From: Amorphus coralli DSM 19760 | GTDB lineage: Bacteria > Pseudomonadota > Alphaproteobacteria > Rhizobiales > Amorphaceae | DNA: 32,000 bases | NCBI RefSeq assembly: GCF_000374525.1 | Contig: NZ_KB894577.1 | Coordinates: forward strand, 154,126-186,125 | Direction: 5' to 3' | In this document: positions 11,923 to 26,055 of the stretch, piece after piece | How the letters are laid out: each line of letters starts with the position of its first letter | Position numbering within the stretch: the first letter of the stretch is position 1 | Position numbers and translations under genes: made by a program | Notes under the pieces: model-generated | Database searches by the model: none | The model's input: only the letters and a program-made list of their open reading frames with translations | What the model was told of the DNA's origin: nothing

Positions 11923-12563
11923 AGCCGGATCTCCACGATGGGAATGGACGGCAGCACACCGGCAGAGAAGGCCGTCAGCGAGATCTCCAGCCGGTCGGTG
12001 TCGAAGCGCACCGGCACGTCGAACAGGAAGCCCGCTGTCACCGCCGCCCCGTTCGCCGGCACCGCACCGGGCTGGAAGGTCACGACACCGGTGGCCGCAT
12101 CGACGGTGAAGTCGGCACCGGCCGTCTGCTCCACGCCGGCCACCGCCACACGCACCGTCTCCGCCACCGGCTTGTCGATGCGCCGCACCCAGGGCGCATG
12201 CGCGCTGCCATAGGTCTTGCTGAGCTGGAAGATCGCCGTCGCCCCGTCCCCGGTGCCGATCGCCTGGTCGGTGGACGTCGGCGTCGCAGAGGGCGCTCCG
12301 GACCGGTGGTCGACCGGATCGCGGTAGCGAAAGCCGCTCAGCCGGCCGCGCCGCTCCTCGAAGAAGCTCGCCACCGTGTGCAGATCGTCGATGGAGCGCA
12401 CTCCGGACCCGGCGTCGTAGCGCCGGCGGGAGTCCGCCCAGCGGGCGTTGCGCTCCTCGTGGCCGGATCCGAGCAGCACGATCTCCGTGCGTCGCTCCGG
12501 CCCGCCCGTCGCCCCGAACGCCACGGCAAGCGGAAACAGGATTTCGTGGAAGGCGGTGGTCAT
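11919..12563 (-). CDS. g12: GTA distal tail protein (RcGTA g12-like, DUF2460/TIGR02217)
   Basis: 214 aa. N-terminus MTTAFHEILFPLAVAFGATGGPERRTEIV is typical of this family. AAAGGA SD. Confidence 0.85.
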   Translation of the reverse strand: MTTAFHEILFPLAVAFGATGGPERRTEIVLLGSGHEERNARWADSRRRYDAGSGVRSIDDLHTVASFFEERRGRLSGFRYRDPVDHRSGAPSATPTSTDQAIGTGDGATAIFQLSKTYGSAHAPWVRRIDKPVAETVRVAVAGVEQTAGADFTVDAATGVVTFQPGAVPANGAAVTAGFLFDVPVRFDTDRLEISLTAFSAGVLPSIPIVEIRL

Positions 12564-12580
12564 TGGCTTTGATCCTTTCT

Positions 12581-12722
12581 CCCCTCACGCGGAGTTCGCT
12601 CCGCTCACTCGCTCCGGGTGGGCGGCCTCCGGCCGGCGCACGGTCGCGCGCTGGCGGGCGCAGTCCGGGAAGGCCGTGCCTTTTTCTCCGCTCACCCCCG
12701 CGAAGGCGGGGGTCCAGGGCGG
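12581..12722. repeat. mosaic repeat block (family C module + one family A hairpin unit) between g11 and g12
   Basis: CCCCTCACGCGGAGTTCGCTCCGCTCAC...CGGCGCACGGTCGCGCGCTGG recurs at 14555, 16992, 21322 and 23655. The family A unit lies at 12688-12720. Confidence 0.85.
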
Positions 12723-12747
12723 AAGATTGCTGCCTGTGTGTCACCCC

Positions 12748-13335
12748 TCAGCTTCCGCGCCGGCCGCGACCGACGGCGCGCGCCAGCATTGCCGTCACCT
12801 GCGCCTCCGACCGCCGGAAGCTCTCCGCATCCGGCGTCGTCACCGTCATCGTCACGTGCACCGGCGCCCCGCCGGACGCCGACACCCCGAGCCGTCCGTC
12901 CGGCCCGCGACTGAGCGGCAGGATCGCCTCGGGGCCGGCTTCGCCGGCGAGGCCGGTCCGACCCCCGCCGAGCGGAAATGTCGCCGGCGCGCCGATCACC
13001 CCGCCCTCGGCAAACGGCAGGAGATTGCCGGCGGTCTTCACCGCCCCTGCCGCCGCCGCTCCCAGGATCGAACCGCCCAGCCCGCTGCCGCCGATGAGCG
13101 CCTCGCCCAGCGGCTTCAGCGCCGCCTTCAGCACCGAGGCGGAGATGCTCCGCGCCGCCGACGCCAGCACCCGGTCGAGCCGCCGCCCCTCCACCACCGC
13201 CGATTTCAGACCGCTGACCACGGTGGCGGAAAAGCGTTCCGCCGCCCGCTCCAGCTCGGCCGAGGTGCGCGCCACGGAGGTCTCCAGCGCGTCGGGATCG
13301 AAGCCCGCGCCGGTGTCGTTCGGATCGTCCGCCAT
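12748..13335 (-). CDS. g11: GTA tape-measure protein (RcGTA g11-like)
   Basis: 195 aa, GGAGG SD. Gly/Ala-rich middle and ...GEAGPEAILPL... motif, in the position upstream of g12. Confidence 0.8.
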   Translation of the reverse strand: MADDPNDTGAGFDPDALETSVARTSAELERAAERFSATVVSGLKSAVVEGRRLDRVLASAARSISASVLKAALKPLGEALIGGSGLGGSILGAAAAGAVKTAGNLLPFAEGGVIGAPATFPLGGGRTGLAGEAGPEAILPLSRGPDGRLGVSASGGAPVHVTMTVTTPDAESFRRSEAQVTAMLARAVGRGRRGS

Positions 13336-13345
13336 GAGACCTCCG

Positions 13346-13510
13346 TCAGGATGAATCGTGTTGATCGATGAGTGCCCGCAGTCCGGCCGCCGCGCCCGTC
13401 CCGGGCGGCTCCAGCGCGGCGCGGAGTTCCGGCAGGCTCATGGCCCAGAAGGACGCGGGCGACAGCCGCATCTGCCCCAGCCCGAACCGCATCGCCTCGG
13501 TCCAGGGGAA
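13346..13510 (-). CDS. g10.1: GTA g10.1-like small tail-assembly protein; conserved part only, no canonical start upstream
   Basis: FPWTEAMRFGLGQMRLSPASFWAMSLPELRAAL matches the conserved small protein between g10 and g11. Immediately upstream the frame runs into family B repeats, with no ATG/GTG/TTG before FPW; the first ATG is internal at 13492. Confidence 0.5.
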   Translation of the reverse strand, partial: FPWTEAMRFGLGQMRLSPASFWAMSLPELRAALEPPGTGAAAGLRALIDQHDSS

Positions 13511-13517
13511 GGCCCGA

Positions 13518-13615
13518 GCGCTTCCAGGCGAAGTGGAAACCGGTTCGCCGTCCGGAAGCGCGGCTAAACAAGCGCTTCCAGGAAAAGTGGGCACCGGTTT
13601 TCCGTCCGGAAGCGC
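13518..13615. repeat. two tandem family B double-stem hairpins (13518-13561, 13572-13615; 54-nt period)
   Basis: GCGCTTCC-A-GGCGAA-GTGGAAACCGG-TTCGCC-GTCC-GGAAGCGC and GCGCTTCC-A-GGAAAA-GTGGGCACCGG-TTTTCC-GTCC-GGAAGCGC. Confidence 0.9.
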
Positions 13616-13662
13616 GCAGGAAGATTCTGCCGCCTCGCCGTCTTTGCGAAGGCCAGGCGGCT

Positions 13663-14007
13663 CTAGAGAGGGTTTTCGCCCGCTTCCTCCTCCCCCGCCC
13701 CGAAGGTCGCGGTCAGGAGATCGGTCACGATCGCGGCGAACCCCGCCGCCCCTCCGGGCGTGGTCATCGCCGCCACCTCGTCGTCGGACACCGGGTTGCC
13801 GGCGCCCCGGAGGCCCGCTCCGATCACCCGCACGGCGTCGCCGGCCTTGAGCCGGCCGGAACCGAAGCGTTCCGCCAGCGCCACCAGGTCGTCGGCCTGG
13901 AAGGCCGTTTCCAGCTCCGCCAGCGCCCCCAGCGTCAGGCACAGGGTGAAGCGGCGCCCGTCGAAGACGGCGGCGACCTCGCCGCGATGCCGGTTCGCCA
14001 TGGTCAT
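13663..14007 (-). CDS. g10: GTA tail assembly chaperone (RcGTA g10-like)
   Basis: 114 aa, ATGA overlap with g9. The motif GEVAAVFDGRRFTLCLTLGALAELE is typical of the GTA family protein. Confidence 0.8.
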   Translation of the reverse strand: MTMANRHRGEVAAVFDGRRFTLCLTLGALAELETAFQADDLVALAERFGSGRLKAGDAVRVIGAGLRGAGNPVSDDEVAAMTTPGGAAGFAAIVTDLLTATFGAGEEEAGENPL

Positions 14008-14417
14008 GCCGCCGCAAACGTCAGTTCGCCGGCCGATTCCAGCGAGATCTCGTAGTTCACCTCGCCATCATGATTGCCGGCATAGTCGAGACCGGTCAGC
14101 TGGAACGGCCCGGACACGGTACCGAAGTCCGGGATCACCACCTGCCAGCTCCGGATCGCGCCGGCGAAGAAGATGGTGCGCGCCGCGGCATCCGAGGCGC
14201 CGTCCTTGAAGATGCCCGAGCCCGACAGGCTGGCGCGCCGCACACCGGCCCCGTCCAGGAGTTCCCGCCAGCGCCCGGCCGACTCCGTGTCGGTCACGTC
14301 GACCGCATCGGCGTTGAACGACAGCCGCCGCGCCCTCAGCCCGGCCACCGTTACGAACGACCCCGCCCCGCTCTGGTCGAGCCGGAGCACGAGGTCCCTG
14401 CCCCGCTGTGCGCCCAT
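14004..14417 (-). CDS. g9: GTA major tail (tube) protein (RcGTA g9-like, TP901-1 family)
   Basis: ATG 14417 is preceded by AGGGAGG. 137 aa with the motif GSGIFKDGASD...FQLTGLDYAGNHDGEVNYEISLESAG. Confidence 0.85.
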   Translation of the reverse strand: MGAQRGRDLVLRLDQSGAGSFVTVAGLRARRLSFNADAVDVTDTESAGRWRELLDGAGVRRASLSGSGIFKDGASDAAARTIFFAGAIRSWQVVIPDFGTVSGPFQLTGLDYAGNHDGEVNYEISLESAGELTFAAA

Positions 14418-14443
14418 GCGCGCCTCCCTTGTCTGGTGGAAGA

Positions 14444-15116
14444 GCAAAGCCAGGCGAAGTGGGAACCGGTTCGCCGTCCGGCTTTGCGGAGTGAAAGAGC
14501 AATCCCAGGAAAAGTGGGAACCGGTTTTCCGTCCGGGATTGCGTGGAAAAGATGCCCCTCACGCCGAGTACGCTTTGCGCACCGGCTCCGCGTTTTTCCC
14601 GCTCACGCCGAACTCGCTTCGCGCGCCGGCTCCGCGAGGGCGTGGGTGTTTCTTTCCGCTCACGCGAGTTCGCTGCGCTCACCGCTGCGCGGGCGCGGCC
14701 TCCGGCCGGCGCGCGGTCGCGCGCTGGTGGGAGTTGTCCGGCAAGGCTGAACTTGTTGAGGGAGCGCGCGCCCCAAACTCCGCTCATCCCCGCGAAAGCG
14801 GGGATCCATAGGGCCTGTCAGCCGACACCCAGCGGAATGATGGATGTCTCAGACCCAGCCCAGAACTCCGCTCATTCCGGCGGAGGCCGGAATCCAGTTG
14901 CGGAGGAACTCCAGGCTGACTCGGCAAGAGGATGGGCGCAGCCACCGGCAGCGGGCCTCATCCCACCGCGCCGTGCGGGGCAAACTCGGCCCCTGGGTTC
15001 AGGCATTCGCCGGAACGAGCGGCTGGGGAAGGACCGTCGGGCATCTGAGCCCGCAGTCACAATCAAGCACCCAGCCAGCTTCTCCGCCGATCCCGACGAA
15101 AGCCGGGATCAGCCCG
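14444..15116. repeat. repeat block: two family B hairpins (14444-14487, 14499-14542), composite mosaic copy I (14555-15022), one degenerate A unit (about 15070-15116)
   Basis: Direct comparison with the blocks at 16992, 21322 and 24100 shows the same module order. Confidence 0.9.
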
Positions 15117-15119
15117 CCC

Positions 15120-15548
15120 CTACTTCGCGTAGTTGTAGATCGCGCAGGGATCCGCATCCGGCGTCGGCTTGGCGTCGCCGGTGTAGACGATCAGGCTCAT
15201 CCCGTCGTCGAACGGTGCGAGCACCAGATAGGTCGGCTTGTTGCCCGGCAGTCCGCAGAACTTGTTGCCGTTCAGGAGCGTCAGATCCTTCGGCGGGTCG
15301 ATGCGGAAGATCGAGCCCTCGACGGCGGCCTGCTGGTCGCCCCACTTGCCCTTTTCCGATCCGTCGGCGGCGATGGCCAGCGTGCTGCCGTCCTCGAAGG
15401 TGATGGAGTCTTCCGCCACCTCGATGCTGCCGGTGATGGAGGTCGCCGTGTTGCTCAGCGGCTCCCAGGTGCCGTCGAGACCGGCGGCCATCGCCCCCTG
15501 CGTCAGCCCGAAGGCCAGAACGGCTGCCGTCAGCATCGTCGTCTTCAT
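15120..15548 (-). CDS. secreted hypothetical protein inserted between g8 and g9
   Basis: ATG 15548 with GGAG upstream. Signal peptide MKTTMLTAAVLAFGLTQGAMA; strong GC3 bias; no GTA homologue recalled. Confidence 0.75.
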   Translation of the reverse strand: MKTTMLTAAVLAFGLTQGAMAAGLDGTWEPLSNTATSITGSIEVAEDSITFEDGSTLAIAADGSEKGKWGDQQAAVEGSIFRIDPPKDLTLLNGNKFCGLPGNKPTYLVLAPFDDGMSLIVYTGDAKPTPDADPCAIYNYAK

Positions 15549-15644
15549 AGTCTCGCTCCCCGCGGTTCCAGGCTCATCGATCCGAACGACACGATAAAGC
15601 CTGCAGGCCACAGCGTCACGACAGCTTTGTTGCGGGCTCGCCCC

Positions 15645-16052
15645 CTACTGTGTCGGCTCTGTAACCGCCCTCAGCCGGATGACGGCCACCACCGAGCGCC
15701 GGTCCGGTGCCTCGCGGAAAGCCCGATCGACGAGGGTGAGCGACACCAGCCGGTGCCCGTCGAGCGGCAGGGCCGTGCCCACCAGCACCGCCTCGATCCG
15801 GTCGGCGATTCCCGCCGCCTCCGAGCGCCCGTGCGCGGTGGAGTGGATGTCCAGCGCGATCCGATGTTCCCGGAGCGGTGGCAGGTCGCCGTCGAGCCGC
15901 CGGTCGCTCGCCGGCCCGAACGTCACGAACGGATGCGCCGCACCGCGCGGCGCCCGGTCGTGCACCCGAGCGCCCCCAAGCAGCGCCACCAGGTCGTCGT
16001 CTCCCGCAAGGGCGGCATGAACGGCCGCCTGCAGCGCCAGGCCCGCGTCCAT
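15645..16052 (-). CDS. g8: GTA tail terminator (RcGTA g8-like, DUF3168)
   Basis: 135 aa. The start shares 1 nt with the g7 stop. DUF3168-like N-terminus MDAGLALQAAVHAALAGDDDLVALLGGARVHDRAP...HPFVTFG. Confidence 0.8.
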   Translation of the reverse strand: MDAGLALQAAVHAALAGDDDLVALLGGARVHDRAPRGAAHPFVTFGPASDRRLDGDLPPLREHRIALDIHSTAHGRSEAAGIADRIEAVLVGTALPLDGHRLVSLTLVDRAFREAPDRRSVVAVIRLRAVTEPTQ

Positions 16053-16381
16053 CACCGTCCCTCCTCTTGGGCTTCCAGAACGAGATAGTGGTCGCCGCGC
16101 CCCTCCGGACGCGTCGCCAGGATCGTCAGGATCCGCGACCCCAGGACGATCCGCTGGCCGCCGGCGATCTCCGGATGCGCGCGGACCGTAATCCGGTGGG
16201 TGGCGATGCCGTCGAGACGGCCGGAGCGGTCGCGTTCGGCCGCGGCTAGGCTCTCCACCCGGCCCCAGACTGAGGCGACCGGCCGCCATGTCACCGTCGC
16301 GCCGCCGGCCCCGTCGGCCGTGCGCACCGGTGCCTCGATGGCAAGCCGCCGGTCGAGCGCACCGATCGCGGGCGCCTTCAT
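16052..16381 (-). CDS. g7: GTA head-closure / stopper protein (RcGTA g7-like, Phage_H_T_join)
   Basis: 109 aa, ATGA overlap with g6. The motif TVTWRPVASVWGRVESL...HRITVR is typical of the HK97 gp10-like family. Confidence 0.85.
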   Translation of the reverse strand: MKAPAIGALDRRLAIEAPVRTADGAGGATVTWRPVASVWGRVESLAAAERDRSGRLDGIATHRITVRAHPEIAGGQRIVLGSRILTILATRPEGRGDHYLVLEAQEEGR

Positions 16382-16941
16382 GCCACCCTCGTCAGGCGAT
16401 AGGGCCGCACCAGGCTGTCGACGCCCAGCGTGAGCGGTTCCGGCACCGGCGCCAGCGCCGCCTCGCGGTGGGCGTACCAGTGGGCAACGAGCAACAGGAT
16501 CGCCTGCCTGAGCGGCGCCGGAACGTGCGCCGGTTCGGTGCCGTAGCCAGCGGTGATGTCGATCTCGACCTGGCAGCCGGCGACAGAGCGCCTGGCCTCG
16601 GGCAGGACCCGGATCCGCGTCGTCGGCAGGTCCACCACGTAATCGGCTGGCGCCAGCACCCGCGCCGTTCCGTCGAGGTCGCGCAGCGTCACCGCGTCGA
16701 CGGACAGAACCGGTGCGGGCTCCAGCCGCACGATGCCGGCCGGGCGAAGGTCGTCGCGGATAATCCGCCAGCCCTGCTCCAGGAGTGCCCGGCCGGTAGC
16801 CGCCTCCACGTGGCGGCGCGCCGCTGCGATCAGGTCGAGGATGGCGGCGTCTTCGTCGGCACCGTCGACGCGCAGATGCCGCTTGGCGGCGGCCAGCGTC
16901 ACCGGCTCCACCGCCGGTGGATCGGTCAGGATGGCTGTCAT
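16378..16941 (-). CDS. g6: GTA head-tail adaptor (RcGTA g6-like, gp6 connector family)
   Basis: 187 aa. EPVTLAAAKRHLRVDGADEDAAILDLIAAARRHVEAATGRALL is the gp6-like connector signature. Confidence 0.85.
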   Translation of the reverse strand: MTAILTDPPAVEPVTLAAAKRHLRVDGADEDAAILDLIAAARRHVEAATGRALLEQGWRIIRDDLRPAGIVRLEPAPVLSVDAVTLRDLDGTARVLAPADYVVDLPTTRIRVLPEARRSVAGCQVEIDITAGYGTEPAHVPAPLRQAILLLVAHWYAHREAALAPVPEPLTLGVDSLVRPYRLTRVA

Positions 16942-16950
16942 GATCGCTCC

Positions 16951-16985
16951 AGAAAAGAAAGGCCCGGCTTCGGGTGAAGCCGGGC
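16951..16985 (-). terminator. rho-independent terminator (minus strand) immediately upstream of the g6 SD
   Basis: On the minus strand: GCCCGGCTTC-ACCC-GAAGCCGGGC (perfect 10-bp stem) followed by CTTTCTTTTCT. Confidence 0.6.
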
Positions 16986-16991
16986 ATTTAT

Positions 16992-17726
16992 CCCCTCACG
17001 CGGAATTCGCTCCGCTCACCCGCTCCGGGTGGGCGGGAGTCTTTTCCGCTCACGCCGAACTCGCTTCGCTCGCCGGCTGCGCGAGGGCGCCCTGACCGGG
17101 CGGCGGACGGTCGTCCGCGGGTTGGAGTTGTCCGGGAAGGCCTGACTTGGATGGGACAGCGCCGGCCCCACCCTCCGCTCATTCCGGCGAAGGCCGGAAT
17201 CCATAGGGCCTGTCGTCAGTCTCCCAACGGAATGATGGGTTGCACAAAGCCCACCCCAACCTCCGCTCATTCCGGCGAAGGCCGGAATCCAGGTACGGCG
17301 GGAAACCAGGCCGACGCGGGAAAAGGAGTGGCGCAGCCGCCGGCAACGGGCCTCATCCCACACCGCCGCCCGCAGCGACCTCAGTAACTGGATTCCGGCC
17401 TTCGCCGGAATGAGCGGGGGATGGAAGGGCCCGTCATCCCGCAACCCAGCGGGATCACTCCAGCATCAGCCCACACTCCGCTCATCCCGACGAAAGTCGG
17501 GATCCAGGGCCGCAGTCCGCAGGATCGGAGTTCGACCGCCCTGGACCCCGGCTTTCGCCGAGGTGAGCGGCTAAGGGGGAAAACCCGTCAGCCCGCCACC
17601 TCAGCTGGATCACTCCAGCACCCGCCCCACCCTCCGCTCATCCCCGCGCAGGCGGGGATCCAGGGCCACGGGCCGCAGCGTCGGAGACTGCAGCCCTGGA
17701 CTGCCGCCTGCGCGGGAGTCAGCGGG
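16992..17726. repeat. composite mosaic copy II (16992-17417) plus two further roughly 151-bp units, each ending in an inverted family A doublet (17478-17570, 17634-17725)
   Basis: Module-by-module match to copies I, III and IV. It fills the 813-bp gap between g5 and g6. Confidence 0.9.
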
Positions 17727-17754
17727 ATGGCTCGAGCCCCAGAAACCCCCGCCC

Positions 17755-19011
17755 CTAGTCGGAGAACTGCAGCAGCTTGATCGCGTCGAAGTCCTGGACG
17801 CCGCCGCCCACCCGCTTGGTCGTGTAGAACAGCACGTAGGGCTTGGAGGAGTAGGGATCGCGCAGCACCCGCACCCCCATCCGGTCGACGATCAGGTAGC
17901 CGCGGCGGAAGTCGCCGAAGGCAATGGCCGTCTCGTCGGAGCCGATGTCCGGCATGTCCTCGGCTTCCACGACCGGGAAGTTCATCAGCGACGCAGCCCC
18001 GCCCGGTACCGCCGGCGGCTGCCACAGATAGGTGTCGTCGCCGTCCTTCATCTTGCGCACCGCCGCCTGGGTGCGCCGGTTCATCACGAAGGTCGCGTTC
18101 TGCCGGTAGCCGGCCTTAAGCGCGTAGACGAGGTCGACCAGCACATCGCCGGGGTCCGTCGCCGGAAACGCCCCGTCGGCGCCGGTCGAGACCGTACCGA
18201 TGGTCTCCCAGGCCCAGGCGCTCTCGTCGACGGTGGTGTAGGCGAGAAACCCGGTCGGCTTCTTGTCGCCGTCGCCGGCGACGAAGGCGGCGCTTTCCTG
18301 TTCGGCAAACGCCTGGTCGATCTCGCCGGCCAGCCACTCGCCCACGTCGATCGCCGCGTCGTCGAGCAGCGTCGCCGAGGCCGCCGGCATGGCGTAGAGC
18401 TCCATCGTCGGGAACACGAGCTCCTTCAGCACCGGCGCGTCGGTCTCCGGGCGCGCGTCGCTCTCGCCGACCCAGCCCACCGCCGGGCCGGAGGTGGCGA
18501 ACGGCTTCTTGAAGCTGGTGCCGGACACCTGCCGTACCCCGGAGATCGCGCGGATCGGCGAGATCTCCGAAAGCCGGCGGCCGATCTCCCGGTCCACCTC
18601 CTCCGGCACCAGGTAGCCGGCGTCGTCGGCGGCGGCCGTGAGCGCCTTCATCTCCAGCGCCTTCAGGTCGTGGTCGCGCCCGGCCCGCACATAGGTCTCG
18701 AAAGCCGCCTTGTGCTCGATGGACGCGGCGCTGCGGAAGGCCGGCCCGTCGCCGGAGATCGCCGGCCGCTTCGCCTTCAGCACCAGGTCGTCGACCCGCG
18801 CCCTGTGGGCGTCCAGCGCCCGGTCCACCCGGTCGAGCTTCTCGATGGTCACCACGTCGGCGGCGGAGCGGCGCTCCAGCTCGTCGAGGCGCTGGTCGTT
18901 GGTCTCCTTGAACACCTCGAAGGCGCCCATGAAGTCGGAAAAGGCGGAGCCGAGGTCGCCGTCGCCGCCGGCCGCCTTGGTCTCCGGGGCGCAATCCTGA
19001 AATCCGGTCAT
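17755..19011 (-). CDS. g5: GTA major capsid protein (HK97 fold, RcGTA g5-like)
   Basis: ATG 19011 is preceded by GAGAGGA. 418 aa: an N-terminal delta-like coiled region, then ...YLVPEEVDREI...FKKPFATSGP...GYLIVDRMGVRVLRDPYSSKPYVLFYTTKRVGGGV. Confidence 0.9.
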   Translation of the reverse strand: MTGFQDCAPETKAAGGDGDLGSAFSDFMGAFEVFKETNDQRLDELERRSAADVVTIEKLDRVDRALDAHRARVDDLVLKAKRPAISGDGPAFRSAASIEHKAAFETYVRAGRDHDLKALEMKALTAAADDAGYLVPEEVDREIGRRLSEISPIRAISGVRQVSGTSFKKPFATSGPAVGWVGESDARPETDAPVLKELVFPTMELYAMPAASATLLDDAAIDVGEWLAGEIDQAFAEQESAAFVAGDGDKKPTGFLAYTTVDESAWAWETIGTVSTGADGAFPATDPGDVLVDLVYALKAGYRQNATFVMNRRTQAAVRKMKDGDDTYLWQPPAVPGGAASLMNFPVVEAEDMPDIGSDETAIAFGDFRRGYLIVDRMGVRVLRDPYSSKPYVLFYTTKRVGGGVQDFDAIKLLQFSD

Positions 19012-19042
19012 CCTGTTGTCCTCTCTGCCTGGATGCGGAACG

Positions 19043-19080
19043 AAAAAAGCGGGCGCCGGCCGCCTGGCCCGCCTCCCGCT
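19043..19080 (-). terminator. terminator-like imperfect hairpin plus U6 between g4 and g5 (minus strand)
   Basis: Minus strand: AGCGGGAGGCGGGCC-AGGC-GGCCGGCGCCCGCT followed by TTTTTT. Confidence 0.45.
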
Positions 19081-19118
19081 TGCTGTGTCCTGAAAGTCCG
19101 ATGGTCGAAGGGGCGCCC

Positions 19119-19727
19119 TCAACGCGCCCGCAGCAGCTGCGCCGCCTGCCGGAAGCCGCTTGCCAGCCGGGCCGGATCGCTCCCCGGCCACAGCGTGGCC
19201 GCCTTGGCGGCGCGCACCCGCGCCTCCGGCAGCATCGGGAAGGTCACGATGGAGATCTCCCAGAGATCCAGCTCGATCAGCACGCGATGCCCGCTCTTGC
19301 GGTCGGTACGGGCCCGCACCGTTCGAAAGCCGATGGAGAGCCCGTCGAGCACGCCCTCGCGCATCAGCGCCTTCACCTCGCGCGCCCGCCGCGTCTCGGC
19401 CGAAAGCCGGCCGCGCACGAACAGGCCGCGCGCGTCCTCGGCAATGGTCACGAACCGGCCGATGGGCTCGGCCGGGTCGTGCTGGTAGAGGAGCTTCACC
19501 GCCCCCGCGCCCTTCTTCGCCAGCGAGGCGGTAAACGCCCCCGGCGCCACCACGTCGCCGGACAGGTCCGGCCGGCCGAACAGCGTCGCGTACCCCGCGA
19601 ACGCCCCGTCGGAGGAGACGGTCGGCTGCGCTGCCGGCGAGAACTTCACCTCCAGCGCGGGAGCAGCCCGTCCGCCCCTGGCCCTGCCGTGTCTCCCGTC
19701 CTTCGTGTCGTCAGCTCGACCGCTCAT
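19119..19727 (-). CDS. g4: GTA prohead protease (HK97 family, S78; RcGTA g4-like)
   Basis: 202 aa. FAGYATLFGRPDLSGDVVAPGAF...LLYQHD...PIG...GLSIGF...DLWEISIVTFP. Confidence 0.9.
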   Translation of the reverse strand: MSGRADDTKDGRHGRARGGRAAPALEVKFSPAAQPTVSSDGAFAGYATLFGRPDLSGDVVAPGAFTASLAKKGAGAVKLLYQHDPAEPIGRFVTIAEDARGLFVRGRLSAETRRAREVKALMREGVLDGLSIGFRTVRARTDRKSGHRVLIELDLWEISIVTFPMLPEARVRAAKAATLWPGSDPARLASGFRQAAQLLRAR

Positions 19728-19870
19728 CGCCCCACCTCCACGATCCGCGGCCCGGATCCACGCGCCTCCGATCGCACCCGGATCAGCCGCTCCATCTCCG
19801 CCACGAAGGCCTCAAACACGCGCCGATGGTCGGCGGGACGCCCCCCCGCTGCCCTTCTTTCGATCTGCAT
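19724..19870 (-). CDS. small hypothetical protein (48 aa) translationally coupled to g4
   Basis: ATG 19870 lies 7 nt after AGGAGG. The stop overlaps the g4 ATG (ATGA). Sequence: MQIERRAAGGRPADHRRVFEAFVAEMERLIRVRSEARGSGPRIVEVGR. Confidence 0.5.
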   Translation of the reverse strand: MQIERRAAGGRPADHRRVFEAFVAEMERLIRVRSEARGSGPRIVEVGR

Positions 19871-19892
19871 GATGTCCTCCTGAGGAGCCCAA

Positions 19893-20116
19893 CCTCTGAC
19901 TTGCCGAACACCTCCAACCAGCGCACGACCGTGCGCCGCACACGCAATCGCAGGAAAAGTGCCCTTGCGGTTTTCCGTCCGCGATTGCGACCCAGAGATC
20001 ATCAGGCCACCCTCCCGGAGCCGGTGCGCGCAAGCGCACTCGGCGCGAGGGGCAAAAAAGGTCATTCGCCCCGCAAAGCCGGACGGAAAACCGGTTCCCA
20101 CTTTTCCTGGCTTTGC
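19893..20116. repeat. mosaic repeat block (family C pieces in reverse orientation; family B hairpins at 19944-19988 and 20073-20116)
   Basis: The reverse complement of 19893-19940 matches GGCGGCGCRCGGTCGCGCGCTGGTGGG...; the B units have intact outer and inner stems. Confidence 0.85.
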
Positions 20117-20117
20117 T

Positions 20118-20282
20118 TCAATCCCGCTCCCGGAAGATCGCCGTCAGCCGGGCGATCTCGTTGACGAAGTCGTTGAAGCGCCGGTTCGAGACCGCCAGTT
20201 CCCGCAGCGCCCAGACCAGGAGCGCGCTCGCCGACGAGGCCCAGAGAAACAGTGCCAGGTGCGCCAGGTCGCCGCGCTCCAT
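20118..20282 (-). CDS. g3.5: small membrane protein in the g3.5 position
   Basis: 54 aa, MERGDLAHLALFLWASSASALLVWALRELAVSNRRFNDFVNEIARLTAIFRERD, with one TM helix. It lies 26 nt downstream of the portal stop. Confidence 0.5.
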   Translation of the reverse strand: MERGDLAHLALFLWASSASALLVWALRELAVSNRRFNDFVNEIARLTAIFRERD

Positions 20283-20307
20283 CACCGACTGGGTGACCGG
20301 GTCCACC

Positions 20308-21306
20308 TCATCCCTCCGGCGCGGCCGGATCGCCGCGCGGCGAGTAGCCCACCGCTGCCCGCTTCTCGTCGTCGGAGAGGAACGAGGCCTCTTCCAGCCG
20401 CCGCCACAGCGCCTCGCGCTCCGACGACAGCGCCTCCACGCCGTCGGCATCAAAGGCGAGCCGCAGCCCCTCGCCGAAGGCGGGCCCGAGCCAGCCGCCG
20501 ATCGCCGCCGCCGTGCGCCCGACGAGCGGCAGCACCGTCTGGCGCCAGAACGCCCGGTTCGCTTCCTGGAAGTTGGCGTAGGTGTTGTCGCCGGGGATGC
20601 CGAGCAGCATCGGCGGCACCCCGAAGGCGAGCGCGATCTCCCGCGCCGCCTGGTTCTTCGCCTCGATGAAGTCCATGTCCTTGGGCGTGAGCGCCATCGC
20701 CCGCCAGTCGAGCCCGCCTTCCAGAAGCAGCGGCCGCCCGGCGTTGCGCGCCCCCTGGTAGCCCTCCTCCAGCTCGCCCTTCAGCCGCTCGAACTGATCC
20801 GACGTCAGCGTCCCGTCGCCGCCGGAATAGACCAGCGCGCCGGAGGGCCGCGCTGCGTTGTCGAGCAGCGCCTTGTTCCAGGCACCGGCGGCGTTGTGGA
20901 TGTCGAGGCTCGTCTGCGCCGCCTCGATGGGCGCGAAACCGTAGTGGTCGTTGAGCGGATGGAACAGCGTCAGGTGCAGGATCGGCGACGCCCCCTCCTC
21001 GCCCGCCGGAAACCGCACCGAGCGGCCGTTGACGGTGTACTCGAACGCCTCCGGCCAGCCGCTCGCTCCCGGCAGAACCTTCATCCGGTCGGGCCTCAGC
21101 GCGAACAGCTCGCGCACCCGTCCCTCGACGCTGACGGCCTCCAGGTAGGCGTTGCCGGCCACCAGCAGGTGGCCGTAGAGCGCCTCCATCAGCCCCGTCC
21201 CCGCCTGGCCGGCGTTCGGCTGCGCGATCACCGGCCCGGTGCGCGAGGCCTTCGCCTCGGGCGCGGCTTTCCCGCCCGCCCGCCTGAAGACGCGATCGAT
21301 CAGCAT
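20308..21306 (-). CDS. g3: GTA portal protein (HK97 family; RcGTA g3-like), apparently about 55-60 aa shorter than usual
   Basis: AAGAGGA SD. MLIDRVFRR...EAKASRTGPVIA joins directly to QPNAGQAGTGLMEALYGHLLVAGNAYLEAV...; the rest is a typical portal (NAARPSGALVY, FIEAKNQAAREIALAFGVPPMLLG). Confidence 0.85.
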   Translation of the reverse strand: MLIDRVFRRAGGKAAPEAKASRTGPVIAQPNAGQAGTGLMEALYGHLLVAGNAYLEAVSVEGRVRELFALRPDRMKVLPGASGWPEAFEYTVNGRSVRFPAGEEGASPILHLTLFHPLNDHYGFAPIEAAQTSLDIHNAAGAWNKALLDNAARPSGALVYSGGDGTLTSDQFERLKGELEEGYQGARNAGRPLLLEGGLDWRAMALTPKDMDFIEAKNQAAREIALAFGVPPMLLGIPGDNTYANFQEANRAFWRQTVLPLVGRTAAAIGGWLGPAFGEGLRLAFDADGVEALSSEREALWRRLEEASFLSDDEKRAAVGYSPRGDPAAPEG

Positions 21307-21321
21307 GGTTGGGTCCTCTTG

Positions 21322-21753
21322 TTTCGCTCACGCCGAGCTCGCTTCGCTCGCCGCTGCGCGGGCGCAGCCTGTTGTCTGTCCCCCTCACGCCGAGTTCGCT
21401 GGCGCTCACCGGCTCCGGGTGGGCGCCCTGACCGGGCGGCGGACAGTCGTCCGCTGCTGGAGGCGGTCCGGAGAGACTTGAGTTGGCTCACTCCGAAGTT
21501 GCCGCAACCTCCGCTCACTCCCGCGTAGGCAGGGATCCATAGGGCCTCTCAGCGATCTCCCAACGGGATGATGGCTCACTCCGCACCCACCCCAATCCCC
21601 GCTCATTCCGGCGAAGGCCGGAATCCAGTTGCGGCGGGAAACCAGGACAGCCCGGCAAGTGGATAGACGCAGCCACCGACAACGGGCCTCATCCCACCAC
21701 GCCACCCGCAGCAATCTCGGCATCTGGATTCCCGCCTTCGCCGGAATGAGCGG
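21322..21753. repeat. composite mosaic copy III filling the g2-g3 gap
   Basis: Same C - A(...CATAGGGCC) - spacer(...CCCAACGGRATGATGG...) - A doublet order as copies I and II. Confidence 0.9.
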
Positions 21754-21773
21754 GGTTTGAGGCGCACACCCCC

Positions 21774-23132
21774 TCAGACCCGCCGGATCGCCGGGCGGCT
21801 GACCGGCCCCAGCATCAGCGCGGTGATCGCCCAGACCAGCGCGTCGAGCCGGTCCGGCGAGCGCCCGTTCGCGGTGCCGTCCGGGCCGAAGCCGCAGAGC
21901 TCGTCCTCCAGCTCCGGGAATGCGCCGGCATGGCGCACCCGGCCCTGGGCGTAGAGCGTCGCCACCGGCTCCGCCCGCAGCCACTTGCCGCGGCTCGCCC
22001 GCACGCTCGTCACCGGCACGCCGGCATCCACCTGGCGGATCACCGCCGCCACCATGTCGCCGCCCTGGTTCACCTCGGCGACCAGCGCGTCCGCCTGGAA
22101 CCGCCGGTAGGCCGCCACCGCCTTCGCCGCCCACACCGCCGGTGCCGCCGCCGCCACCGTCTCGTCGGCCAGCACGTAGCCGATCCCGTCCGCCGCGATG
22201 CCCGCCGCCACGATCCCGCACACCGAGGCCCTGCCGCCCGCCGCCGGCGGGTCCACCGCCACCACGATGCGGCTCATCTCCGGCGCGCCGTCGACCCGTG
22301 CCCGCTCCACCGTCGCCCGGCTCCACAGCGCGTCCTCCCGGTCGGTGAGGATCTCACCGTCCAGCTCCTGCCGGCCGAGCCGGGTGCCGCGATAGCGCCC
22401 CACCACCCGCTCCAGGAAGCCGGGCGCCAGATTGGCCGCGTTGTCCTTCGTCGGCATCCGCGCCACTTCCGTGCGCGGCGCCTCCATCAGCCGTGCCAGA
22501 AGCGGGATCGGCCGCGGCGTCGTCGTCACCACCTGGCGCGGCCGCTCGCCGAGCCTGAGCGCGAACTGCAGCATGTCCCACGCCTCCTCCGCCAGCCGCC
22601 ACTTGGCCAGCTCGTCGGCCCAGGCGGCGCCGAACTGCGGCCCGCGCAGGCTTTCCGGATCGTCGGCGGAAAACAGCTCCGCCACCGCGCCGTTCTTCCA
22701 TTCCAGCCGCCGGCGCGAGGGCTGCCACAGCGGCCGCTCGTCGGCGGCATGCACCGACAACAGCCCCGACACGCCCTCCACCATCACGCCGCGCGCGTCG
22801 ATCAGGGTTTCGCCGACAAGCGCGATCCGGCCGACGGGCGCGGAGGCGAACCCGTCGCGGCCCAGCGCCATGCCCTTCACCCATTCCGCGCCCGCCCGCG
22901 TCTTGCCGGCGCCACGCCCGCCCAGGATCAGCCAGACGGTCCAGTCGCCGTCGGGCGGCAGCTGCTCGTCGCGGGCCTGGAACATCCATTCCCGCGCCAG
23001 CCACGCCAGCGTCTCCGGCGGCAGCTCGGCCAGGAACGCGGCGCGCTCATCCGGGTCGAGCCCGTCGAGCGAGCCGATCAAGGCGGTCCGCAAGGTCCTG
23101 TCTGAGGGTGTCGATGTCCGGCCGGTGTCCAT
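21774..23132 (-). CDS. g2: GTA large terminase (RcGTA g2-like)
   Basis: Walker A motif LILGGRGAGKTRAGAEWV and a conserved N-terminus LIGSLDGLDPDERAAFLAEL. The start at 23132 is chosen by homology and overlaps the g1 3' end; alternative TTG at 23093. Confidence 0.9.
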   Translation of the reverse strand: MDTGRTSTPSDRTLRTALIGSLDGLDPDERAAFLAELPPETLAWLAREWMFQARDEQLPPDGDWTVWLILGGRGAGKTRAGAEWVKGMALGRDGFASAPVGRIALVGETLIDARGVMVEGVSGLLSVHAADERPLWQPSRRRLEWKNGAVAELFSADDPESLRGPQFGAAWADELAKWRLAEEAWDMLQFALRLGERPRQVVTTTPRPIPLLARLMEAPRTEVARMPTKDNAANLAPGFLERVVGRYRGTRLGRQELDGEILTDREDALWSRATVERARVDGAPEMSRIVVAVDPPAAGGRASVCGIVAAGIAADGIGYVLADETVAAAAPAVWAAKAVAAYRRFQADALVAEVNQGGDMVAAVIRQVDAGVPVTSVRASRGKWLRAEPVATLYAQGRVRHAGAFPELEDELCGFGPDGTANGRSPDRLDALVWAITALMLGPVSRPAIRRV

Positions 23133-24057
23133 GCGCCGCCTCTCCGCCGTCTGCCTGCGCCTTGCGGTCGAGGGCGAGCAGGATGTCCAGAGTGCGCGCC
23201 AGCGCCGCCAGCACCCTGGTGTCGCGTTCCGCGTCCTCGGCGGCATCGGGATCGAAGCGCGCCTCGATGGCCGATATCCGCGCCTCGAACACCCGGTAGA
23301 GCCGGGCGATCATCGCGGCCCGGTCCGACGGCGAGCGGTGCAGCGCCCGGCCCTGCGGCCGGCGCGGCAGTGCGGGTTTGGATGGAGAGTTCTTGCCGCG
23401 CAGATGCGCTGAATTCTCTCCACTCACGCCGATCTCGCTTCGCTCGCCGGCACCGCGAGGGCGGCCTGGTTCTTCAGGTCGCAAAGCCGGACGGCGAACC
23501 GGTTCCCACTTCGCCTTGCTTTGCTCGGGCGGCGCGCAGTCGCGGGCTGGTGGGTGCTGTCCGGCGGGGCCCAGTTCGGGGCCCTCCGCCGCCTCCCCCA
23601 AACGCCGCTCCTTCCCGCGAAGGCGGGAATCCAGGGCTTCAGGCTTCGGACCGTATTGTTTGCCCCTCCCGCCGAGTTCGCTTGCGCTCACCGGCTCCGG
23701 GTGGGCGCCCTGACCGGGCGGCGCGCAGTCGCGCGCTGGTGGGTGCTGTCCGGCGGGGCCCAGTTCGGGGCCCTCCGCCGCCTCCCCCAAACGCCGCTCC
23801 TTCCCGCGAAGGCGGGAATCCAGGGCTCCAGACTCCGAACCCGGCGGGCCGGCGTCCGTCCCGTCCAGCCCCGTGCGGCCCCTGACCCTTGGCGGCCTGA
23901 GCGTCCGGTCCCAGCCCTCCCGGCGGGCGCGGTCGCGCAGCCCGGATTCGGACATGCCGTAGCGGTCGCCGATCTCCCGCAGCGTTCCCACACCCGCCTC
24001 GAAGGCGGCTCTTGCGGCCGCCCAGTCCGGTCTGAACGACGGAAGGGGCTGGTCCAT
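23047..24057 (-). CDS. g1: GTA g1-like (small-terminase-type) protein carrying a roughly 430-bp in-frame repeat-derived insertion
   Basis: N-terminal HTH-like module MDQPLPSFRPDWAAARAAFEAGVGTLREIGDRYGMSESGLRDRARREGWDR and C-terminal helical module AMIARLYRVFEARISAIEARF...DIDTLRQDLADRLDRLA are in one uninterrupted frame. They are separated by translated repeats. Confidence 0.55.
   Translation of the reverse strand: MDQPLPSFRPDWAAARAAFEAGVGTLREIGDRYGMSESGLRDRARREGWDRTLRPPRVRGRTGLDGTDAGPPGSESGALDSRLRGKERRLGEAAEGPELGPAGQHPPARDCAPPGQGAHPEPVSASELGGRGKQYGPKPEALDSRLRGKERRLGEAAEGPELGPAGQHPPARDCAPPEQSKAKWEPVRRPALRPEEPGRPRGAGERSEIGVSGENSAHLRGKNSPSKPALPRRPQGRALHRSPSDRAAMIARLYRVFEARISAIEARFDPDAAEDAERDTRVLAALARTLDILLALDRKAQADGGEAAHGHRPDIDTLRQDLADRLDRLARRARPG
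23405..23832. repeat. repeat block inside g1: family C pieces, family B hairpin (23481-23524), and a 112-bp segment duplicated with a 189-bp period (23527-23638 and 23716-23827), each ending in a family A unit
   Basis: The two 112-bp copies differ at a single position by eye (CGCGGGCTGG vs CGCGCGCTGG). Confidence 0.9.
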
Positions 24058-24099
24058 GATGCGCGTGTCCCTCTGCCAGAAATGAAACCTGTTCACGTC

Positions 24100-24491
24100 G
24101 CGAGCACGAACGGAAAACCGCGAGAGCACTCTTCCTGCGCTCGCTCGACCGGCGCGTGGTCGCGCACTGGTTGGCGTGATCCGGCAAGATGGTGGTCGGT
24201 TCGGGAGGAGCCCGCCCCATCCTCCGCTCATTCCCGCGAAAGCGGGGATCCATAAGGCCTGTCGGCGAGCCCGATGACATGCAAGATGTCTCCCCGGCCA
24301 AACCAAACGCCGCTCATTCCCGCGAAGGCGGGAAACCAGGGCGGCACGCCGCAGCCGGAAAATTCCACCTCTGACCATCCCGGGAACCGCAGTTACCGGC
24401 GACCAAAGCTCAGGTCGATGCGGGGCGAATGGGAGTTCACGGAACTTCGGAGACCGAAGCCCTGGATGCCCGCCTTCGCGGGAATGTGCGG
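24100..24491. repeat. composite mosaic copy IV (degenerate B hairpin 24100-24144, C remnant, A unit, A doublet 24310-24491) 43 nt upstream of the g1 start
   Basis: Module order matches copies I-III. Confidence 0.85.
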
Positions 24492-24597
24492 ACAAATAGG
24501 GATCGCCGAGGCACACCAGCCGCCCGTCCCGATCCGGGACCACGCCCGGCGCCCTCCTTCCGGAAGCCCCCGGCCGCAGCTGTCCGACGATGCCTGA

Positions 24598-24626
24598 ACC
24601 CTAGCGAACCAGCGTCACGATGTCAA
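24598..24626 (-). promoter_or_regulatory. candidate sigma70-type promoter facing the GTA cluster
   Basis: Minus strand: A-tract, TTGACA (24626-24621), 17-nt spacer, TAGGGT (24603-24598). It sits at the AT-rich islet / repeat boundary, about 540 nt upstream of g1. Confidence 0.3.
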
Positions 24627-24703
24627 GGATTTTTTTCCTAGTTATCTACGTGCCTTCGCTTAACGAAGTTGGCCAGAGATCCCCAAGTGTAAAATGCCGA
24701 ACA

Positions 24704-25315
24704 TCACTCCTTAAGATCAGGAAGAATACTCCCGAAAATTCCTGGAACAGCTGGGAGACCAAGTGCACCTATCCCGAATGGCGCTGAAATGGGCGATGTG
24801 GATTGGCGATACATAAGCGCGGCGACTACGCTGCTCTTTGAAAGGGCCTCGCAGAGGCTGTGCATTTTTATTTTAAGGGCATCAACCTCCATAACTTCGT
24901 CATAGAAGCGCTTTGCCGGCCATACTTCGTCAGGCACATCAAGCTTGCTACTAGCCTTTACCACGAGAAATCGAACGGAGCCCGCATCATCATTCTCCGG
25001 ACCAAACAGGTCATGAGCCATCATATTCCTAATCGGCGACTTATCTGAAATTCTTTGGAGCGCGGATTTATAGGACGTTATCTCATCTCTATTTAGAGGC
25101 GAAATATCGACTAAAGTCTTAGAAATTTTGATTTTATTACTAAGTGTAATGTTTTTACATAGGATTATTCTTTGGATATCGGTTAATTCAAGACTTTTTG
25201 AGATGGCGTTGTTCAACGAGCCTTCCATGATAGCCCAGCGTTGAAGGAAGAATCCAACGAGAGCACATGCAGCAATTTGCGAAGGAGTATTTTCAGGAAG
25301 TCGCACTGACCGCAC
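24704..25315 (-). CDS. HEPN-motif protein (putative RNase toxin / abortive-infection effector) in an AT-rich islet
   Basis: 203-aa ORF (GTG start; alternative starts downstream). R-x4-H motif with the canonical Asn (IRNMMAHD, residues 96-101). Hydrophobic Gly-rich C-terminus FGIGALGLPAVPGIFGSIL. Base composition is clearly AT-richer than the flanks. Confidence 0.5.
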   Translation of the reverse strand: MRSVRLPENTPSQIAACALVGFFLQRWAIMEGSLNNAISKSLELTDIQRIILCKNITLSNKIKISKTLVDISPLNRDEITSYKSALQRISDKSPIRNMMAHDLFGPENDDAGSVRFLVVKASSKLDVPDEVWPAKRFYDEVMEVDALKIKMHSLCEALSKSSVVAALMYRQSTSPISAPFGIGALGLPAVPGIFGSILPDLKE

Positions 25316-25354
25316 CCCAATTCATTGAAGAAGGCGCTCAATTATAATAGGGGC

Positions 25355-25525: not shown

Positions 25526-25597
25526 AGCATCCTCCTATGATTGTTGTATAGGGATGATACCATCGACACCTTCCATGTCACGCCCATCCCCTTCACT

Positions 25598-26008: not shown

Positions 26009-26055
26009 CGTTTGGGGTGGCGCGCGGTGCCTCCTCAACCGGCCTCCCCCCACCC

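Follow-up and report, generated by a model that had tools for sequence, protein, structure and literature searches.

The window analysed here, a 32,000-nt stretch of Amorphus coralli DSM 19760 (contig NZ_KB894577.1, positions 154,126 to 186,125 of the forward strand), carries on its minus strand a complete RcGTA-type head-tail gene transfer agent (GTA) cluster (6715-24057), which is punctuated by blocks of hairpin repeats. GTAs are domesticated viruses whose maintenance and regulation are still poorly understood. The blocks are probably selfish or tolerated mosaics of four hairpin families (A, B, C and D), resembling bacterial interspersed mosaic elements (BIMEs), that proliferated in the RcGTA-type cluster of one Amorphus sub-lineage. 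The copies persist only where selection allows, namely just past stop codons and upstream of the next Shine-Dalgarno (SD) sequence or of ancestral regulatory hairpins, and those in translated linkers (g1 and, most likely, g10-g10.1) keep the reading frame and contain no stops. New variations are the dense filling of a GTA with repeats, the A-D-C composite with its two lineage-specific families, and the frame-preserving inserts in the small terminase (TerS) and in the tail-chaperone linker.

The G+C periodicity at third codon positions (GC3), which is strong along the minus-strand gene array, is lost at about 14400-15075, 16880-17700, 19800-20100, 21300-21750, 23330-23780 and 24000-24500, and the direct and inverted repeat families returned by repeat finders are confined to the blocks where it is lost. 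Placing the repeat units with nhmmer family models yields 45 units in the 32 kb (19 A, 11 C, 8 D and 7 B), 43 of which fall within 12582-24490; the remaining two flank a GIY-YIG gene (25599-26007). The original prediction, made from the letters of the sequence, had listed seven repeat-filled junctions and the interior of g1, and all eight blocks exist at the coordinates it gave, the garbled interval '13518-15' standing for 13518-13615. Its estimate of about 3 kb of repeat is to be corrected: the total non-gene sequence from g1 to g12 is ~3.2 kb, and the excess over the compact relative is ~2.3 kb. The blocks and the elements attached to them are, with the orientation of each unit given as + or -:

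24058-24491, minus strand: leader block upstream of g1; units A+ A- A- D+
24111-24091, minus strand: terminator-like hairpin, with an SD sequence, between the leader block and the g1 ATG
23314-23850, minus strand: insert internal to g1; units A- D+ C+ A- D+ B+ C+, including a 189-nt (63-codon) tandem duplication
21307-21773, minus strand: g2/g3 block; units A+ A- A- D+ C+ C+
19871-20117, minus strand: block between g3.5 and a small open reading frame (ORF); units B+ C- B- D-, the first hairpin starting 1 nt past the g3.5 stop
16942-17754, minus strand: g5/g6 block, the largest; units A- A- A+ A- A- D+ C+ C+, with inverted A doublets ~80 nt apart
14418-15119, minus strand: block between ORF X and g9; units A+ A- A- D+ C+ C+ C+ B- B-
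13669-13675, minus strand: candidate heptamer A AAC CCT for -1 slippage, in frame zero of g10; the stop codon of g10 follows after 3 nt
13493-13662, minus strand: g10/g10.1 'spacer'; a conserved post-stop hairpin (13629-13662), then two B- units of 54 nt (18 codons) each
12564-12747, minus strand: g11/g12 block; a single A- D+ C+ module, flanked by TGAGGGG as a 7-nt direct repeat, of which the g11 stop codon forms part

As had been proposed, the insertions lie past stop codons and ahead of the next SD sequence, and SD-like motifs can be read 7-14 nt upstream of g3, g6, g9 and g12. At g11/g12, the metagenomic relative L082 reads TGAGGGG-CCAAGGATCACAGCCA and the window reads TGAGGGG-[A-D-C]-TGAGGGG-AGAAAGGATCAAAGCCA. 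We considered a target-site duplication as the origin of the flanking TGAGGGG repeat; the motif is also the normal 3' end of family C, and from its sequence the repeat may be a recombination footprint.

The four families differ in anatomy, described here in GTA-sense orientation. Family A consists of the head CCGCTCA[TC], of which CCGCTCA is nearly invariant, an 8-bp stem with five covarying pairs, a loop of GAAG or GAAA and a CCAG tail; family B forms a two-tier hairpin of 17 bp, its predicted energy being -26 kcal/mol; family C, an imperfect hairpin, shares the head CCGCTCA[TC] with family A and has the 3' end GTGAG(C/G)GG; and family D has a 6-bp stem and a GAC[CT] loop within conserved flanks. 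Compensatory changes preserve the stems in all four. Pairing amounts to 94% in family A versus 83.7% in shuffles and to 95.7% in family D versus 81.3% in shuffles (none of 500 shuffles reaches the observed value in either case), and it collapses in slid-register controls; family B has seven pairs with double changes among its seven copies. The recurring arrangement is a module A- D+ C+ of about 170-190 nt, sometimes preceded by inverted A doublets ~80 nt apart, and modules are also duplicated in tandem. The arms of the doublets at 17256-17301/17379-17424 and 21590-21632/21720-21762 are 89-91% complementary and 77-87 nt apart. Orientation across loci is strongly biased in three families (C 28:7, D 26:6, A 9:32).

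In all of this the blocks fit the earlier description of them as hairpin repeats akin to repetitive extragenic palindromic (REP) elements. Like the REPs, BIMEs and REP doublets forming hairpins (REPINs) of E. coli and Pseudomonas, they are short imperfect palindromes with compensatory stem changes and inverted doublets ~80 nt apart, they form mosaic clusters within operons past stop codons, and they have an associated gene flanked by its own repeats. They differ from the systems of REPs or REPINs with a REP-associated tyrosine transposase (RAYT) in that the enzyme here is a GIY-YIG nuclease, not a Y1 HUH transposase, and that CCGCTCA[TC] takes the place of a GTAG or CGTC head; a RAYT gene (Y1 HUH, IS200/IS605-like) was not found among the ORFs scanned in the 32 kb of genome in the window.

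Relatives of the cluster were found by a capsid search, with loci from Tara, JGI and NCBI isolate assemblies; these lineages are related to one another, and counts across them are not fully independent. Amorphus sp. 3PC139-8 (81% capsid identity) is compact, with five units only, junctions of 76 nt at g5/g6, 67 nt at X/g9 and 29 nt at g11/g12, and 75 nt between the N- and C-terminal parts of g1. In the expanded lineages, by contrast, which comprise the metagenomic L082 and L083 (91-94%), Amorphus sp. MBR-141 and the window, 23-47 units each occupy the same junctions with different lengths and contents. Their g5/g6 junctions measure 388, 691, 685 and 813 nt (813 nt in the window), and their g11/g12 junctions 20, 308, 565 and 184 nt, with the site empty at 20 nt in L082 and filled to 184 nt in the window. 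This contrast between the compact 3PC139-8 and its expanded, variable relatives indicates that the expansion took place after the compact Amorphus lineages had split off, and that its turnover continues. Because the window and 3PC139-8 share the last C unit beside the g3 SD, that unit is ancestral. Neither family C nor family D occurs in 80 other Hyphomicrobiales GTA loci, so both are lineage-specific. The comparison with relatives accordingly agrees with the original prediction in that the insertions are lineage-specific, and long conserved spacers of non-repetitive sequence, which would have spoken against it, are not seen.

The same comparison bears on the quality of the assembly. The blocks are almost certainly not collapsed or chimeric repeats created during assembly, even though contigs of the Logan collection do break at them: L081 ends inside the g10/g10.1 block, and L086, an independent assembly that covers the portal gene, has both its ends within tens of nt of the blocks that border the portal/g3.5 segment. 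Against an artefact stand L081 itself, an independent short-read assembly that is 100% identical to the window across 8429-13599 and reproduces the g11/g12 block without a mismatch, and four independent relatives (Tara, JGI and NCBI isolate assemblies) that have the same architecture at the same junctions.

Two of the blocks most likely lie within translated sequence. The original prediction had ORFs spared by the repeats, which holds for all other coding sequence of the window, where nhmmer places no repeat unit, but the translated linkers of g1 and of g10/g10.1 carry repeats in frame. In compact relatives g1 is one ORF of 166-185 aa, and it reaches 242 aa in P0125, 301 aa in L083 and 336 aa in the window, the extra length being made of A-D-C units read in one frame, with tandem periods of 189, 168 and 90 nt that are all multiples of three; in L082 it is open up to the contig end. 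Across 620 codons of g1 insert, no stop is observed versus 12.1 expected at the intergenic stop density, and 3% of equal-length windows of truly intergenic blocks are stop-free. The AlphaFold (AF2) model of g1 contains a confident helix-turn-helix (HTH) at residues 12-47 and confident C-terminal helices at 243-333, and insert residues 59-221 have a pLDDT below 50 and no secondary structure in this model, which is supportive only, given its shallow alignment. The insert is thus predicted to be a disordered linker between the HTH domain and the C-terminal helices.

The second case is the g10/g10.1 'spacer', counted as a junction in the original prediction, which is probably, to judge from its sequence, the translated linker of a -1 frameshift g10-g10.1 fusion. 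It measures 47, 68, 122, 170 and 176 nt in five lineages, each length being 2 mod 3, and in each of them the g10.1 (-1) frame runs open through it. The candidate heptamer A AAC CCT is kept in four of the five (MBR-141 has GGACCCT), the hairpin after the g10 stop (13629-13662) is conserved via compensatory changes between lineages, and an AFPW motif is conserved upstream of the annotated g10.1 ATG. Because the -1 frame is open and the heptamer, the hairpin and the AFPW motif are all in place, the two 18-codon B units are most likely coding. Tail assembly chaperones of tailed phages (G/GT) reportedly undergo a programmed -1 frameshift, as described in 2004 by Xu, Hendrix and Duda. The region resembles this system in that g10 has an X XXY YYZ heptamer close to its end, a hairpin follows, g10.1 is in the -1 frame, and coding is conserved upstream of the g10.1 ATG; it differs in that the predicted fusion linker is lengthened by repeat units and the heptamer is not kept in MBR-141. 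Rickettsia palindromic elements (RPEs), for their part, are said, after work by Ogata and colleagues in 2000, to be inserted in frame in protein genes, and the g1 and g10-g10.1 linkers match that pattern in that selfish palindromes survive in coding sequence only as in-frame, stop-free inserts in tolerant regions. Unlike RPEs, the repeats belong to another family and another host, the inserts grow by tandem duplication (189, 168 and 90 nt) and most copies are intergenic. The small terminase and the tail-chaperone linker would accept, then, peptide segments encoded by repeats.

The genes between which the blocks lie run collinearly from g1 to g15 and possess the domains typical of GTAs (DUF2460, Gp84_N/BR0599, GTA_TIM, Rcc01698_C, Phage_TAC_11). 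Pfam bears out the gene identities proposed in the original prediction and covers g2 to g15, with matches to Terminase_6N/6C, Phage_portal, Peptidase_S78, Phage_capsid, Phage_connect_1, Phage_HCP, gp17, Phage_tail_2, Phage_TAC_11, Phage_TAC_6, DUF2460, Gp84_N/BR0599, NlpC_P60 and GTA_TIM/Rcc01698_C; the N-terminal part of g1 matches the DNA-binding domain of a PHROG terminase small subunit (E = 3e-11). The genes, together with the site of a deletion in the portal gene and one repeat-free spacer, are:

24057-23047, minus strand: g1, TerS
about 23132-21774, minus strand: g2, large terminase (TerL)
21306-20308, minus strand: g3, portal
21216-21230, minus strand: portal deletion site; in-frame loss of 189 nt (63 codons) of a highly conserved N-terminal segment, with TCGC microhomology flanks
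20306-20118, minus strand: g3.5
19870-19724, minus strand: small ORF (48 aa), whose stop overlaps the g4 start (ATGA)
19727-19119, minus strand: g4, protease
19011-17755, minus strand: g5, capsid
16941-16378, minus strand: g6
about 16384-16052, minus strand: g7
16055-15645, minus strand: g8
15549-15644, minus strand: g8/X spacer, repeat-free; a promoter-like GTGACG-N17-TATCGT upstream of ORF X, conserved in four lineages, is read by eye
15548-15120, minus strand: ORF X (142 aa)
14417-14004, minus strand: g9
14007-13663, minus strand: g10
13492-13346, minus strand: g10.1
13335-12748, minus strand: g11
12563-11919, minus strand: g12
11931-11041, minus strand: g13
11063-10608, minus strand: g14
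about 10608-6715, minus strand: g15

These genes are under constraint. Pairwise dN/dS over ~4,400 codons is 0.18 versus L082 and 0.21 versus L083, with values of 0.04-0.3 for nearly all structural genes and high values, 0.4-0.9, for ORF X and the small ORF. The compared lineages all carry repeats and the values are low, which indicates purifying selection on the cluster while it was invaded. A GTA cluster can therefore absorb kilobases of selfish hairpin DNA at fixed permissive junctions under purifying selection, presumably freed from self-packaging.

The original prediction had also offered a decaying GTA, in which the repeats mark relaxed selection on a future pseudogene array. As a general reading this finds no support, in view of the dN/dS of 0.18-0.21, and we consider it highly unlikely, given that every lineage compared is repeat-bearing, every gene is intact, starts and SD sequences are kept and the coding inserts are in frame. 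What speaks for decay is, besides the dN/dS of 0.4-0.9 in ORF X and the small ORF and a frameshift in g1 of MBR-141, the portal protein, which has 332 aa in A. coralli versus 391-395 aa in all relatives and is thus short of 63 highly conserved codons. The same 332-aa protein is encoded on an independent Logan contig (SRR892142, a different sequencing run), so that the deletion is confirmed in an independent assembly. However, the portal deletion is in frame, occurs in this strain only and is unrelated to the repeats; with 63 conserved codons lost, the GTA of this particular strain may be impaired.

How a constrained cluster could come to hold so much repeat DNA can be outlined if the units are selfish or nearly neutral passengers, as we infer. 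The GTA cluster would not need to fit its own capsid and would rarely be expressed, and in the absence of a packaging need and of frequent expression its spacers would be under weak selection for compactness. By analogy with CcGTA, the GTA of Caulobacter crescentus, transcription would probably be carried out by an anti-terminating polymerase that reads through the hairpins. In CcGTA, three 150-bp GC-rich direct repeats with inverted repeats follow the first gene and form a strong terminator, ter_GTA (Tran and Le, bioRxiv 10.1101/2023.11.12.565669), which is read through only by GafZ-modified RNA polymerase (Tran and Le, bioRxiv 10.1101/2023.11.12.565669); this bypass is a documented reason why a GTA operon can carry hairpins. 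The likeness to ter_GTA is that direct repeats rich in GC, with inverted repeats within them, occur in an RcGTA-type cluster, not far from its 5' end. The difference is that CcGTA has one block of three 150-bp units that is a shown terminator, whereas the window has eight blocks of dispersed families that are likened to it by description.

The CcGTA precedent, strong termination with read-through only in the presence of GafZ, also favours an explanation in which the blocks were recruited for regulation, either as ter_GTA-like conditional terminators or insulators that keep a lethal cluster silent without a GafZ-type anti-terminator, or as 3'-exonuclease barriers that set the stabilities of head, connector and tail mRNA. 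We regard such recruitment as unlikely, though a real possibility. In its favour, the repeats mark the borders between modules and are strongly biased in orientation with respect to transcription; in other lineages these junctions are taken up by unrelated repeats; and several blocks exceed shuffled sequence in structure by far. Not every block folds better than its shuffles: minimum free energy z-scores against dinucleotide shuffles are -12 for g5/g6, -4.5 for g10/g10.1 and -3.8 for g2/g3, but -1.3 for the g1 insert and +0.6 for g11/g12, the latter two being no more structured than shuffles. Units of A-D lack U-tracts, which counts against a regulatory role; a canonical stem with a T-run, which counts for it, is found only in the ancestral hairpin before g6, downstream of the capsid gene. 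This hairpin (16952-16985, minus strand; GCCCGGCTTC ACCC GAAGCCGGGC CTTTCTTTTC) lies directly upstream of the g6 SD. All four lineages compared have kept it, even the one whose spacer is compact at 76 nt, and the repeats were inserted between it and the g5 stop. Terminator-like hairpins also stand upstream of g1 in three lineages, and a hairpin in that position may be a leader terminator. In L083 (3820-3910) and L085 (5510-5607) we observe a conserved GGCGCGC-TTCG-GCGCGCC hairpin with a T-run, 25-60 nt before the g1 start, from which the hairpin of the window (24111-24091) differs. Further points against regulatory recruitment are that block size and content vary greatly among relatives with 91-96% identical proteins and that the L082 site is empty, which is unexpected for a tuned regulator, and that compact Amorphus clusters manage without blocks.

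The two units outside the cluster identify family A. They form, 1.1 kb upstream of the GTA genes, a small unit of their own:

25595-26011, minus strand: SRM-ssnA-SRM unit (SRM, Ssn-related motif)
25639-25923, minus strand: GIY-YIG nuclease gene, an ssnA homologue (94 aa, single domain; Pfam GIY-YIG at residues 3-76)
25595-25633 and 25973-26011: inverted family-A hairpins that bracket the ssnA homologue, 95% complementary

By its sequence, family A is the published NTS/SRM motif and not a new one. SsnA is a small GIY-YIG nuclease that makes site-specific cuts in single-stranded DNA at the directional hairpin repeat NTS/SRM, and the NTS-ssnA-NTS architecture has been described with it; in Neisseria, SsnA restricts incoming NTS-bearing DNA ~5-fold in transformation, and copies of the NTS are concentrated near certain genes (Chenal et al. 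2025, PMC11893778). The Neisseria NTS consensus CGTCATTCCCGCGMAVGCGGGAATCYRG matches six sites of the window at no more than three mismatches versus none expected, and the two copies adjacent to ssnA have two mismatches. Among ssnA-homologue loci drawn from metagenomes (80, of which 77 were usable), inverted A hairpins bracket 63 of the 77, and the density of A hairpins is ~27 hits/kb within 25 nt of the gene ends versus ~0.09/kb beyond 300 nt. In MBR-141 the ssnA homologue is likewise flanked on both sides by copies and shares a contig with the GTA; in L083 and L085, ssnA is not among the genes called just upstream of the cluster. The encoded protein has no separate DNA-binding domain and comes from a large family (3,311 clusters at E <= 1e-10); its association with the motif suggests that it belongs to the Ssn nuclease family (cd10448). 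The pairing of a GIY-YIG gene with hairpins was at one stage taken for a new REP-nuclease association, which we dropped, as it is already published as Ssn/SRM (Chenal et al. 2025, PMC11893778).

The likeness to the NTS/SRM system extends from the motif, with the same asymmetric head, an ATTCC(C/G)-N8-(C/G)GGAAT hairpin and then the CCAG tail, to its distribution, with copies almost never in ordinary genes, local clusters and a 94-aa GIY-YIG gene between inverted copies. The differences are the alphaproteobacterial host Amorphus, the incorporation of the motifs into A-D-C modules with three other hairpin families, the decoration of a GTA operon, the in-frame translation of some copies, and a homologue that is known from sequence alone. 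As the repeats include the SsnA target motif, an interaction between restriction of single-stranded DNA and GTA transfer is testable in culturable Amorphus strains. We also observe that the plus-strand GC skew is negative over the window (1-32000) and that most SRM heads (14 of 19) are on the strand opposite the GTA genes; with a skew that is negative throughout, the GTA genes are on the G-rich strand, presumably the leading strand.

If the blocks are tolerated mosaics, their spread might proceed via SsnA-dependent single-strand processing, complemented by duplication and recombination, and as side effects they would give the polycistronic RNA hairpins and would provide the module boundaries with sites for SsnA cutting and with dispersed homology. 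Several points count against this account. The mobility of the repeats is inferred rather than directly seen, and a role of SsnA in SRM spread is a hypothesis even in the work that described the system (Chenal et al. 2025, PMC11893778). Tested at the ssnA loci, families B, C and D have zero association. The strong orientation bias and the retention across lineages could reflect a selected function, and the repeats can be called GTA-enriched only by comparison with the ~31 kb of flanks covered in four loci. Lastly, in g1 of MBR-141 (L169:4464-5487) one extra T in a GTTTTTGGGG run inside the insert breaks the frame; downstream of it the frame is still stop-free over 571 nt, and the split is either a recent frameshift or a homopolymer sequencing error.

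The presence of an SsnA target motif raises a further explanation, that the SRM clusters control recombination. SsnA would cut incoming single-stranded copies of the GTA cluster, brought in by GTA particles or by transformation via the Com machinery, at module boundaries, resulting in exchange of short modules or in shielding, and the repeats would provide homology for module swapping. This is quite unlikely in our estimate, but it draws on several observations. SsnA restricts NTS-bearing single-stranded DNA ~5-fold in Neisseria, where NTS cluster around particular genes, and ssnA adjoins the GTA in A. coralli and is on the same contig in MBR-141. Entry of GTA DNA requires ComEC, ComF and ComM and its integration DprA and RecA; since GTA-delivered DNA enters via the competence machinery, we propose that SsnA would cut incoming cluster copies at the module junctions. 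In addition, the module g6-g7-g8-X, which lies between the two largest blocks, diverges by 20.9% between the window and L082, where the remainder of the cluster diverges by 8.6%; the ratio is 2.43, compared with 1.34-1.39 in the five other pairwise comparisons, and the closest pair switches within the module. By this pattern of divergence the g6-X module is recombinant; the window is the outlier in g6 and L082 the outlier in g8, which points to at least two exchanges.

The breakpoints are bracketed between the g5 3' end and mid-g6 and between mid-X and the g9 5' end, intervals that contain the two largest blocks. However, they are not placeable exactly on the repeat blocks, as constraint varies within g6 and X, and this argues against recombination control by SsnA. 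So do the facts that only family A is SRM, with 26 of the 45 units in other families, that the function of alphaproteobacterial Ssn proteins is assumed by analogy, and that in L083 and L085 no ssnA was called immediately upstream of the cluster. The g6-X mosaicism fits repeats that act as recombination junctions or as SsnA cut sites, without proving either. It is also doubtful, in our view, that SRM clusters at the module boundaries couple SsnA restriction to GTA biology through shielding or modular exchange (as in g6-X), possibly with blocks that also gate expression via anti-termination; if this were true, the repeats would not be junk but would add a level of function to a domesticated virus.

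Under the reading that we prefer, of tolerated hairpin mosaics, the position of the blocks reflects which junctions can be filled, and other GTA clusters are informative in this respect. The original prediction described RcGTA-type clusters as normally tightly packed, and packing is indeed tight in the window at g6/g7, g7/g8, g9/g10 and from g12 to g15. Across 80 other Hyphomicrobiales clusters g6/g7, g9/g10 and g12-g15 are tight as well, but g2/g3, g3/g4, g4/g5, g5/g6, g8/g9 and g11/g12 are often expanded, so that the generalisation holds for some junctions and not for others. Six of the 80 contain at least 300 nt of within-cluster repeated gap sequence, from unrelated families, and in the two of these six that were examined (L025 and L047) unrelated repeats occupy the same junctions as in the window: L025 has 279-nt tandem units in 3-4 copies at g2/g3 (6900-7900), and L047 has three copies of 199-nt units plus C-rich/G-rich palindromes (7258-8048, 11182-11679 and 12957-13581). 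Among these examples, the one from a Pannonibacter genome has hairpin repeats at g2/g3, g5/g6 and g8/g9. A major comparative GTA paper makes no mention of repeat-filled junctions. Independent hits on the same junctions in unrelated lineages amount to a map of the insertion tolerance of the operon.

The surroundings of the cluster are those of a host locus. G+C is ~70% over the window, the flanks consist of host genes (a response regulator, a bactofilin, transporters, OmpA and ABC transport proteins) in synteny with relatives, and no genes for phage replication, integration or lysogeny were found among the flanking ORFs scanned; the window contains no Rfam match at the gathering threshold, and no tRNA or tmRNA gene was found in it.

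Two further cluster genes deserve comment. ORF X, called a cargo gene in the original prediction, has a signal-peptide-like N-terminus, lies between g8 and g9 in all five Amorphus-clade clusters and has a dN/dS of 0.44-0.64; from its sequence context it looks like a conserved, independently expressed moron. The small ORF at 19724-19870 is kept in all relatives examined (49-83% identity; dN/dS 0.4-0.9). Since no relative examined lacks either of them, both are clade-specific genes of the cluster rather than recent cargo. Searches of PHROGs, PADLOC and NCBIfam returned zero matches for ORF X, the small ORF, g3.5 and an ORF in a low-GC island.

This island (24600-25560; ~40% G+C in a 70% genome) is situated between the ssnA unit and the GTA leader and holds a 203-aa ORF (24704-25315, minus strand) that is also without a Pfam match. 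Its equivalent in MBR-141 contains an HTH_3 gene, an IS1595 transposase and other ORFs, a difference in content that marks the site as a variable spot, probably horizontally acquired.

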